Below the pieces are notes generated by a model. It had not been told where the DNA came from and did not search any database. It saw only the letters and a list, made by a program, of their open reading frames with translations. Below are positions 5,907-7,179 of a stretch of 7,179 nt of DNA, piece by piece (position 1 is the first letter of the stretch; the number at the start of each line of letters is the position of its first letter). Source of the stretch: a virus. The stretch is from the UHGV virus genome UHGV-0269045, one strand, 5' to 3'. The position numbers and the translations under genes are program-made.

Positions 5907-6091
5907 TAATGCACCTCTTTTAATTCATACACTGCTGAAATAATGACTTGTGATAAGCCATATTCTGATGATTCGCTTCTCACCGCAGCAATAGCCGTCT
6001 GAACATTAACAGCCTTCACATTCTGAGCGATACCAATTGTGTGGCCTAGTGGGTTAACAGCGCTGGCAAATACACGGAAGGTTTTAAGCAC
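5906..6091 (-). CDS. Hypothetical protein (about 61 aa from a GTG start), first gene of the primase operon
   Basis: The 95-aa track ORF has an implausible N-terminal 34 residues; the GTG at 6091 is preceded by GGGGG 6 nt upstream and gives VLKTFRVFASAVNPLGHTIG...ELKEVH. Start-site assignment is inferential. Confidence 0.4.
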   Translation of the reverse strand: MLKTFRVFASAVNPLGHTIGIAQNVKAVNVQTAIAAVRSESSEYGLSQVIISAVYELKEVH

Positions 6092-6097
6092 GGCACA

Positions 6098-6746
6098 CCC
6101 CCTGACGAATACGGGCGACAAAAATAAGATGTGCGTGCGGCAGCTGTGCGCGTGCTTCGCACTCAGTGGCAGCGGTAACGGTGAATATTGCAATGCTGTC
6201 TGTCAGGCACTGCATAAAGCGCCAGACAAAGTAAGGGCGTGCGGATACAGCCATGTGAAAGGCTCCCAGATGAATTTTAAGGAGTCTCGCTACTACGCTG
6301 TCAAACATGGTGGCGAGACGTAACAGGGTTGACAGACTGGTCATCTGGAAACCAGCGAGCACAAAGGCTCCCCCGTTACGCCCCGCCATAATGCGGGTAT
6401 GGGTAGGTTTACGGACACAAAAAAACCGCTTATCGGATGTGGGCGGCTGTCCGCCAGATGTATTCAGGCTGTCAAACCCGGTCGCCATGTGGGCGACGGG
6501 GGAAGCATACAGCCCCGTGATAATTTTTTGCAAGCGGTTTTTACGCATGATGTGACCCCTGACGAATACGAGCGGCAAATACAGCAACACAACCTGACGG
6601 GCAACGGCTACGCGCTTCGCGTTCCGTCCAGGCGGTTACGTGGATGATTTGAGATTCTCCGGCACTCAGTGCCAGAAAACGCCACACAAAGGCCGTTTGT
6701 GTGTACAAGGTGTGGTATATGATTTACGGCAACCATAACGGCTCCT
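6098..6746. repeat. Repeat-rich noncoding leader / regulatory region containing two diverged paralogous segments (about 6098-6266 and 6555-6745) that begin with an identical 15-mer
   Basis: CCCCTGACGAATACG at 6099-6113 and 6556-6570; further shared motifs GCACTCAGTG(G/C)CAG (6159-6172, 6662-6675), CTTCGC, CGGT(A/T)ACG, ACAAAGG and a terminal GGCTCC (6261, 6366, 6740). ORFs on both strands here have non-protein-like composition. Confidence 0.6.
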
Positions 6747-6766
6747 AGTTTACGTTGTTGGTTAGA

Positions 6767-6809
6767 AGCCCTGCGAGTGGTAATGACACTTGCGGGGCTT
6801 TGCTTTTTT
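6767..6809 (+). terminator. Rho-independent terminator on the plus strand
   Basis: AGCCCUGCGAGUG (6767-6779), loop GUAAUGA, CACUUGCGGGGCU (6787-6799): a 13-bp stem including two G-U pairs, followed by UUGCUUUUUU; no U-tract on the minus strand. Confidence 0.7.
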
Positions 6810-6825
6810 AAGTGCTCTTGTGTTA

Positions 6826-6870
6826 AGGTGACCACCTAACAATGGAAAGGCTAATTCAATAGGTGGCCAC
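6826..6870. promoter_or_regulatory. Putative operator: two palindromic GGTG(A/G)CCAC sites about 34 bp apart, overlapping the RBS/start of the Arc-like gene
   Basis: GGTGACCACC at 6827-6836 and GGTGGCCAC at 6862-6870 (GTGGCCAC is a perfect palindrome); the second overlaps the AGGTGG Shine-Dalgarno and abuts the TTG start. Confidence 0.5.
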
Positions 6871-7062
6871 TTGTCAACAATCAAACGCGATAAAAGCCCT
6901 AAAGGGGACGGGCAATCCCCACAATTCAGAATGCGAATTTCTCCAGAGCTAAAAGAGCAATTCGACAAAGAAGCACAGAGCGACGGCATAAGCCTAGCCA
7001 ACTGGCTTAAAGAGTTGGGGCGCACTGAACTAAAGCGGCGCGGCATAGAACCCAAAGGATAA
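6871..7062 (+). CDS. Arc/Mnt-family ribbon-helix-helix transcriptional repressor (63 aa), candidate master repressor of the element
   Basis: PQFRMRISPELKEQFDKEAQSDGISLANWLKELGRTELKRRG aligns by eye with P22 Arc (PQFNLRWPREVLDLVRKVAEENGRSVNSEIYQRVMESFKKEG). TTG start with AGGTGG 4 nt upstream; divergent from the minus-strand operons. Confidence 0.6.
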   Translation: MSTIKRDKSPKGDGQSPQFRMRISPELKEQFDKEAQSDGISLANWLKELGRTELKRRGIEPKG

Positions 7063-7119
7063 AAACTATCAGCGCCGTGGTGTGAGGTATTACGGCGCAT
7101 TGCTATGCAGGACAACACA

Positions 7120-7179
7120 ATGACCGATAAAGAATTGACCAAAACATTATCACCGGCACGGAAAAGACGGCGCAGAAAG
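7120..7179 (+). CDS. 5' end of an ORF running off the window (MTDKELTKTLSPARKRRRRK...); function unknown
   Basis: ATG at 7120 (an in-frame ATG also at 7105); open to the window end; only 20 codons visible. Confidence 0.3.
   Translation, partial: MTDKELTKTLSPARKRRRRK

Follow-up and report, generated by a model that had tools for sequence, protein, structure and literature searches.

The closest described relatives of the system considered here include two repressors from the immI region of Salmonella phage P22, which comprises the promoters Pant and Pmnt, the genes arc and ant, and sar, a small antisense RNA. Arc, a ribbon-helix-helix (RHH) protein, is the product of the first gene of the operon that it represses (Pant-arc-ant), and it binds a single 21-bp operator as a dimer of dimers. 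Mnt is a divergent RHH repressor that silences the immI-type operon in lysogeny and autoregulates from overlapping divergent promoters. The immI regions of P1 and P7 (c4 RNA, icd, ant) and the CI RNA of P4 are RNA-based systems. In Staphylococcus aureus pathogenicity islands (SaPIs) and Gram-positive phage-inducible chromosomal islands (PICIs), a divergent repressor, Stl or Rpr, is placed between the integrase and the replication and packaging genes, and Stl is relieved by helper proteins (PMC6092414). Gram-negative PICIs are activated by AlpA, whose gene is induced by helper phages, and why these islands appear to use an activator where Gram-positive islands use a repressor has been called a mystery (PMC6092414). 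Here we analyse a 7,179-nt stretch of the virus genome UHGV-0269045 (the window, to which all positions refer unless a locus is named), which forms the left portion of a phage satellite of Escherichia coli. The satellite is a Gram-negative PICI or capsid-forming PICI (cf-PICI), and its regulatory module is the same as that of EcCIEDL933, the element of strain EDL933 and the prototype of the capsid-forming class (10.1101/2022.09.08.507074). Its gene rhh (6871-7062, plus strand, TTG start) encodes a 63-aa Arc-like RHH protein, an assignment that draws on the open reading frame (ORF), PHROG_228, homologs, codon statistics, an AlphaFold2 (AF2) model and Foldseek. Our comparisons point to two operators for this protein on the main promoter of the prototypical cf-PICI and make rhh a candidate for the unidentified global repressor of these islands.

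An Arc-type protein and its paired palindromes

The window contains exactly two copies of the motif GGTG(A/G)CCAC, which occupy 6827-6835 and 6862-6870 and begin 35 bp apart. A preliminary description of the window, made from the sequence alone, had proposed two such palindromes as operators of rhh, the second covering the Shine-Dalgarno (SD) sequence and start codon, and both matches are exact. Site 1, AGGTGACCACCT (6826-6837, no strand assigned), is a palindrome of the form AGGT-nnnn-ACCT. Site 2, AGGTGGCCACTT (6861-6872, likewise unstranded), reads AGGTGACCACTT in the E. coli strains Sakai and MS 21-1; it indeed contains an SD-like AGGTGG (6861-6866) together with the first two nucleotides of the TTG start codon. 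The 10-mer AGGTGRCCAC has two exact matches in the window against 0.03 expected, a number reached in 0 of 200 shuffles. With one mismatch allowed there are five matches against 2.1 expected, and 18 of 200 shuffles contain as many, so that this excess is weak and not significant.

Strong comparative evidence that the rhh protein binds both palindromes comes from the sequences of about 90 related satellite loci in Enterobacterales, seven retrieved through exact look-up of the protein and 80 by scanning the species genomes of GTDB. Across genera the positions of the sites are kept, with site 2 spanning -10 to +2 relative to the start codon and site 1 placed 34-35 bp upstream. The outer AGGT...ACCT is near-constant, and the central 4 bp fall into classes that change jointly at both sites. 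These changes follow the protein: its β-strand motif P-x-F-x-x-R falls into roughly nine classes, and across these the cores of the two sites vary in step with the residues whose counterparts in Arc are Gln9 and Asn11. With cores written as read at site 2, β-strands of the type Q..R/K go with the core G(A/G)CC, P..H with GT(A/G)C, T..Q with ACGT, A..Q with ACAC, M..N with CTAT and M..P with ATAT. The variable β-strand residues thus occupy the positions of Arc Gln9 and Asn11, and the invariant Arg that of Arc Arg13, all three of which contact bases in the Arc-operator crystal structure 1PAR. In 61 of 90 loci, site 1 and the reverse complement of site 2 agree at 9 or more of 10 positions; at 260 control offsets in the flanks, such agreement is seen in 0 of 90. 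In addition, the pairing of residues and cores is seen on two helix-2 backbones and with two N-terminal variants; because it recurs on different backbones, it does not reflect one inherited split. The interest of the system lies in this clean operator-residue covariation and in its place in Gram-negative satellites. The matched β-strand and operator variants provide a natural data set for the DNA-recognition code of RHH proteins, and the operator classes suggest heteroimmune groups among satellites.

The rhh product is an RHH protein of the Arc type and a new member of the Arc family, in agreement with the preliminary description. It matches PHROG_228 ('Arc-like repressor', E 5.1e-7), and the best match of the family profile in the Protein Data Bank (PDB) is P22 Arc (E 0.0026), with the PQF of the β-strand aligned to Arc P8-Q9-F10. 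These two matches are weak and mutually consistent, and sequence identity to Arc is only ~27%. In the AF2 model, which has a predicted local distance difference test (pLDDT) score of 81 overall and ~90 over the core, residues 17-24 (PQFRMRIS) are extended and helices span residues 25-37 and 42-56. The model therefore has the RHH layout of an N-terminal β-strand position followed by two helices within ~45 residues; it is a monomer in which no strand is formed, as expected without a partner chain. The top six Foldseek matches are all Arc structures (1myl at a TM-score of 0.89; co-crystals 1par and 1bdv among them), and the matches listed are almost all RHH proteins. The weak E-values from the PDB sequence comparison and from Foldseek are attributable to the tiny size of the protein. 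In NCBIfam, rhh has only a sub-threshold match to TraJ (16.6 bits against a cut-off of 134). P22 Arc is thus the best match in both sequence and structure, sharing the RHH fold and the P-Q-F start of the β-strand. Unlike Arc, the rhh protein has a longer, conserved basic N-terminal arm and two 12-bp palindromes 35 bp apart in place of the single 21-bp operator. Mnt differs more, being 82 aa long with a C-terminal tetramerisation helix and a single operator; rhh has no such extension.

NCBI names rhh homologs 'HicB family antitoxin', in keeping with a Pfam HicB (PF05534) match of 20.4 bits. However, this match is weak, lies below the cut-off of 21 and covers the RHH part alone, and a protein of only 63 aa does not have the N-terminal domain of HicB. 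Neither a HicA gene nor any conserved partner adjoins rhh: its neighbours vary (none, a 62-aa phrog_21027 gene or a 451-aa gene), and rhh is the sole plus-strand gene in Dickeya, E. coli and Proteus loci (L003-L007). The geometry of the operators is linked to a promoter on the opposite strand, which also argues against an antitoxin. We consider a role of rhh as the antitoxin in a type II toxin-antitoxin system very unlikely, and the HicB identity was rejected on the sub-threshold Pfam match, the missing HicA or other partner and the loci in which rhh is the sole plus-strand gene.

Predicted divergent promoters beneath the operators

The preliminary description had placed weight on the overlap of site 2 with the ribosome-binding site, and missed that the main relevance of the operators would come from their placement on a minus-strand promoter. 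When 82 distinct upstream regions are aligned on the rhh start codon, the sole information peaks outside the operators fit such a promoter. In the window, the predicted promoter of the leftward icd-like, C4 and primase operon has the -35 element TTGACA at 6872-6877 (minus strand), which overlaps rhh codons 1-3 and is present in 77 of the 82 regions, and the -10 element TAGCCT at 6848-6853 (minus strand), which leaves an 18-nt spacer and places the start near 6841. Positions +2 to +7 of the rhh start are TGTCAA, the reverse complement of TTGACA, and the conserved positions -18, -19 and -23 correspond to T1, A2 and T6 of a minus-strand TAnnnT. Of the 77 TTGACA-bearing regions, 60 have this TAnnnT after a spacer of 16-18 nt, compared with 6% for control anchors, and 58 of 82 loci have an 18-nt spacer. 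Codon 2 of rhh is the serine codon TCA in 85 of 85 cases, while TCA makes up 27% of the other Ser codons; this invariance indicates constraint at the nucleotide level. At the equivalent place in relatives, a promoter scan returns TTGACA-17-TATTAT (L004) and TTGACA-18-TATGCT (L057). The case for the leftward promoter in the window thus rests on conservation of its sequence among relatives.

On the plus strand, an extended -10 element, TGtTAAGGT (6821-6829), is likely the promoter of rhh, with a predicted start near 6836; its last four nucleotides are the first four of site 1. Among 66 distinct sequences anchored on site 1, its T, G, T and A are conserved at 97%, 89%, 88% and 92%, respectively. 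The full TGnTAnnnT is found in ~55 of these 66, completed by the GGT of the operator. Since this conserved element abuts site 1, autoregulation of rhh, which had been put forward on the basis of the second palindrome, is likely.

These positions suggest how the protein acts. We consider it probable that rhh encodes a dimeric Arc-like RHH repressor that shuts off the leftward operon and represses its own gene, where the promoter positions, the regulatory sign and the stoichiometry are what we infer. Most likely, one dimer would bind each 12-bp palindrome AGGT-nnnn-ACCT through its two-stranded β-sheet, with the central 4 bp read by the residues after Pro and after Phe of P-x-F-x-x-R. Site 2 would fill the -35-proximal part of the spacer of the near-consensus leftward promoter, and site 1 would cover approximately +4 to +15 of the transcript. 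Given site 2 in the spacer and site 1 just past the start, the leftward operon is expected to be off when the sites are occupied, which would silence the icd-like gene, the C4 immunity RNA, the primase and the packaging genes. Self-repression is expected because site 1 overlaps both the extended -10 element and the predicted transcription start of rhh. The two promoters would interdigitate, with starts at ~6836 rightward and ~6841 leftward, and autorepression would yield a homeostatic maintenance switch. An operator in the spacer of the controlled promoter, and likely autoregulation, are again features in common with Arc. Unlike arc, which heads the operon that it represses, rhh is divergent in all loci examined, and its divergent position with overlapping divergent promoters resembles that of mnt.

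A different assignment of the regulatory sign or target is conceivable, in which the protein mainly regulates the plus-strand unit, or activates or dually regulates the leftward promoter. The downstream plus-strand cargo does vary (none, the 62-aa gene or, in Edwardsiella, the 451-aa gene), and the 18-nt spacer of the leftward promoter is suboptimal. However, site 2 abuts and overlaps the -35 element and site 1 lies just past the predicted start, both of which are classic repressor positions, and a TTGACA -35 element does not look activator-dependent. We therefore judge this alternative to be quite improbable.

Several points weigh against repression of the leftward operon as the role of rhh. 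A consensus promoter scan of the window missed the leftward promoter, as TAGCCT matches the consensus at 3 of 6 positions and is sub-threshold. The transcription starts and the repressive sign are read from position only. Three loci (L032, L034 and L035) have no site 2, and the sites of the PAFQMR class are divergent. The loci are also phylogenetically related, so that locus counts overstate the number of independent events. Finally, overexpression of AlpA alone induces EcCIEDL933 (10.1101/2025.02.11.637232), which means that repression by rhh is either bypassed or not dominant. If rhh proves to be only a minor autoregulator, the results still correct an annotation and enlarge the Arc family by one.

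The preliminary description had gone further and proposed that the repressor senses the helper phage and is the induction switch. A master repressor of this kind, similar to Stl and sensing a helper-phage protein directly, would fit the divergent placement of rhh between the integrase side and the replication side, which is that of Stl in SaPIs, and the position of the rhh operators on the main promoter; furthermore, published work states that no global repressor has been identified in Gram-negative PICIs (PMC6092414). Indeed, rhh occupies the same slot as Stl and Rpr and has the same presumed role, being divergent with its predicted binding sites in the main promoter region. However, its fold and size are unrelated to those of Stl, and whereas Stl is relieved by helper proteins, the trigger demonstrated for these Gram-negative islands is expression of AlpA (PMC6092414). 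The alpA gene is induced by the helper, an alpA mutant of EcCIEDL933 is not induced (10.1101/2022.09.08.507074), and alpA overexpression alone drives reproduction of both EcCICFT073 and EcCIEDL933 (PMC6092414; 10.1101/2025.02.11.637232). In addition, a minimal 63-aa RHH protein has no extra domain for binding a ligand. Direct sensing of a helper protein is therefore unlikely, and the claim of helper sensing is unsupported. Release of the proposed rhh repressor at induction would instead probably proceed via AlpA. In locus L002, a strong plus-strand terminator (9786-9818) ends the rhh unit just before the 3′ end of alpA, making the two units convergent. It is interesting to speculate that alpA transcription, which would run toward the 3′ end of the rhh unit, is linked to it by read-through or interference. 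Only two copies of the operator occur in 18.6 kb of a related element, with no others that would point to control of alpA or int. The searchable literature contains no description of an RHH protein, an Arc-like repressor or a master repressor with its operators in Gram-negative PICIs.

Coding strand and annotation of rhh

In RefSeq, E. coli genomes carry no plus-strand gene at this place; a 221-aa minus-strand 'hypothetical protein' is annotated there (248 aa in Sakai). This ORF (WP_001329530.1; ECs_1576 in Sakai) lies antisense to rhh and the next gene, at 6762-7142 of the window, 9165-9830 of L002 and 9165-9908 of L001, all on the minus strand. That it is the real gene and rhh its shadow might be argued from the calls by the Prokaryotic Genome Annotation Pipeline (PGAP) and the Sakai annotation, and from the fact that it stays open in many relatives. 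However, the minus-strand ORF has no family match and in the window comprises only 126 aa from a TTG start, and in six of seven divergent loci no minus-strand gene is called over rhh, the exception being L007, where one overlaps the rhh start. By comparison, the plus-strand protein has 54 homologs with E-values down to 8e-31, almost all of 63-64 aa, from Providencia, Erwinia, Xenorhabdus, Proteus, Morganella, Dickeya, Edwardsiella, Serratia and other genera, which share the N-terminus MST.KRDKSPKG.

Codon statistics favour the same strand. In pairwise comparisons of 37 distinct 63-codon rhh sequences, codon position 3 accounts for 54% of the differences, 51% of the codons that differ are synonymous and none of the 37 coding sequences contains a stop. 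Over the 189 nt that the two frames have in common, the minus-strand frame has stops in 11 of 37 homologs and a synonymous fraction of 0.38, compared with 0.51 for rhh. The signal of purifying selection, seen as codon-position bias and synonymous excess, is confined to the rhh frame. Because codon statistics, stops, homologs and family matches all favour the plus strand, we conclude from these sequence data that rhh is the real gene and that the RefSeq minus-strand call is a shadow ORF; the reverse assignment has a negligible probability. RefSeq E. coli genomes, that of Sakai included, thus annotate an antisense ORF in place of rhh. All 15 rhh genes that start with TTG, and the one that starts with CTG, are of the PQF(R/K)MR operator class; in the other classes the start codon is ATG or, in one case, GTG. 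Phage and plasmid collections contain almost no rhh homologs.

The preliminary description had called rhh the only clear plus-strand gene of the window. The gene stands, but it is followed by a second, whose 5′ part (7106-7179, plus strand, start at 7106 or 7121) matches phrog_21027 (E 1.6e-15) and leaves the window. In relatives the full-length protein is basic and 62 aa long (ORF at 9508-9696 of L002), and the gene is also found in EcCICFT073. It is probably co-transcribed with rhh.

Satellite context and neighbouring RNA features

The minus strand of the window encodes a capsid-family protein, a small terminase, a D5/DUF5906 primase, a DUF4222 protein and small ORFs. Positions 6600-7179 share 98.6-99.3% identity with sequences that include 'prophage Sp7' of E. 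coli O157:H7 Sakai and EDL933, and at least 80% of this segment is present in 112 of 5426 complete genomes; for EcCIEDL933, the rhh module is 98.6% identical to that of the window. To the right of the window, relatives carry an AlpA-like gene, a small ORF and the integrase gene on the minus strand. The gene order is kept as int, alpA, variable genes and then rhh opposite the icd-like gene and the primase. The intergenic gap between rhh and the icd-like gene is ~135 bp, and rhh faces the icd-like gene in all loci with gene calls, so that the divergence from the replication and packaging operon noted in the preliminary description is conserved.

The leftward operon opens with an RNA immunity system (C4, a1b1 and icd-like) just downstream of the operators, which the preliminary description missed. 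Its first gene is icd-like (6541-6738, minus strand; NCBIfam phage_ICD_like, E 4e-18). In the window, a TG run at 6698-6703 is short by 2 bp relative to MS 21-1 and Sakai, which frameshifts the icd-like ORF starting at 6738; the window gene may be a pseudogene or may start at a TTG at 6708. On the same strand follow the a1b1 targets (6461-6510; Rfam, 46.8 bits) and the C4 antisense RNA (6306-6393; Rfam, 72.6 bits), together with an isrK-like terminator segment that has a sub-threshold Rfam match. The segment 6306-6510 (minus strand) is an RNA immunity module of the P1/P4 type, lying between two icd-like segments (6541-6738 and the C-terminal part of the ORF at 6084-6590). C4/isrK-type RNAs in Gram-negative PICIs have already been published (PMC10111431). 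The predicted target operon of rhh resembles the immI regions of P1 and P7 and the CI RNA system of P4 in that it opens with an icd-like gene, a1b1 targets and a C4-family RNA. Unlike those RNA-based systems, it would be under a protein repressor, which for such a promoter is undescribed in searchable papers.

Between the icd-like gene and rhh, we predict from sequence and folding an antisense RNA of ~80 nt (6730-6810, plus strand) that would cover the icd-like translation start, with a -10 element TATGAT at 6718-6723, two hairpins and a T-run. The loop of hairpin 1 (6731-6763) carries an anti-Shine-Dalgarno sequence of the icd-like gene, and hairpin 2 (6765-6801), followed by the T-run, is terminator-like and lies to the left of the rhh promoter. 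The RNA folds at -35.5 kcal/mol (z -5.3). In all 67 distinct homologs compared, hairpin 2 folds more stably as plus-strand than as minus-strand RNA (mean -20.3 vs -15.1 kcal/mol; G.U pairs 124 vs 23), and compensatory changes occur at 13 of its 14 pairs. Hairpin 1 is plus-strand specific in 50 of 50 distinct homologs (G.U pairs 127 vs 9). RNAalifold recovered hairpin 2 and missed hairpin 1, because MAFFT misaligned its variable loop; hairpin 1 therefore rests on the folds of individual sequences. The plus-strand -10 TAnnnT, which lies within codons 5-7 of the icd-like gene, is kept in 54 of 55 distinct icd-like N-termini across 10 different NNT codons, while elsewhere T-ending and C-ending codons are equally common. 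The candidate RNA has no Rfam match, and as Pectobacterium-type loci have a weak T-tail or none, termination is not universal. Alternatively, it could be a long leader of rhh. As an antisense RNA over the ribosome-binding site of the next gene, it would be similar to sar of P22.

At the equivalent slot, the prototype PICI EcCICFT073 carries a 59-aa protein of the YlcI/YnfO family (L091 7474-7790, minus strand of the locus). Like rhh, this protein is predicted to be β-α-α, and the upstream hairpin and the downstream 62-aa gene are shared. The intergenic region contains two copies of AGGTGTGGCCCAC, which, unlike the rhh operators, are direct repeats and lie farther from the gene. Comparison of the YlcI/YnfO-type protein with the rhh family by hhalign is marginal (E 0.0056, probability 6.6%), and given this low probability we claim an equivalent position and not homology. 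The arrangement suggests that repressor alleles are interchangeable at this slot.

We tentatively advance a broader proposal, which is possible though on balance doubtful. In this proposal, rhh and its allelic analogues (the YlcI/YnfO type of EcCICFT073) would be the missing master repressor of Gram-negative PICIs and cf-PICIs, pairs of β-strand and operator would define immunity groups, and convergent transcription driven by AlpA would flip the switch. The undescribed sar-like antisense RNA and the C4 RNA would add further layers, giving a composite of the P22 and P1 immI regions.

The interval between rhh and alpA is a variable cargo slot (5218-6573 in L008 and L009, 5232-6062 in L003, 5637-6323 in L006 and 5446-6039 in L007). 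In Edwardsiella it holds the gene for the 451-aa protein, which is on the rhh strand and has no Pfam matches; the Dickeya and Proteus slots are occupied by antirepressor-like genes of the AntA, pRha or Bro-N kind, which lie on the alpA strand. Some genomes carry the module in two or three copies, namely Erwinia psidii (L021 and L029), Pectobacterium fontis (L051, L066 and L079) and Brenneria izbisi (L049 and L052). The operator classes of the two copies in Erwinia psidii differ, and the three copies in Pectobacterium fontis have one operator class, so that cross-regulation would be possible. At the other end of the window, a short plus-strand ORF (4-168), whose N-terminus we take to resemble the E. 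coli membrane protein TqsA, ends abruptly and probably marks the chromosomal junction of the island.

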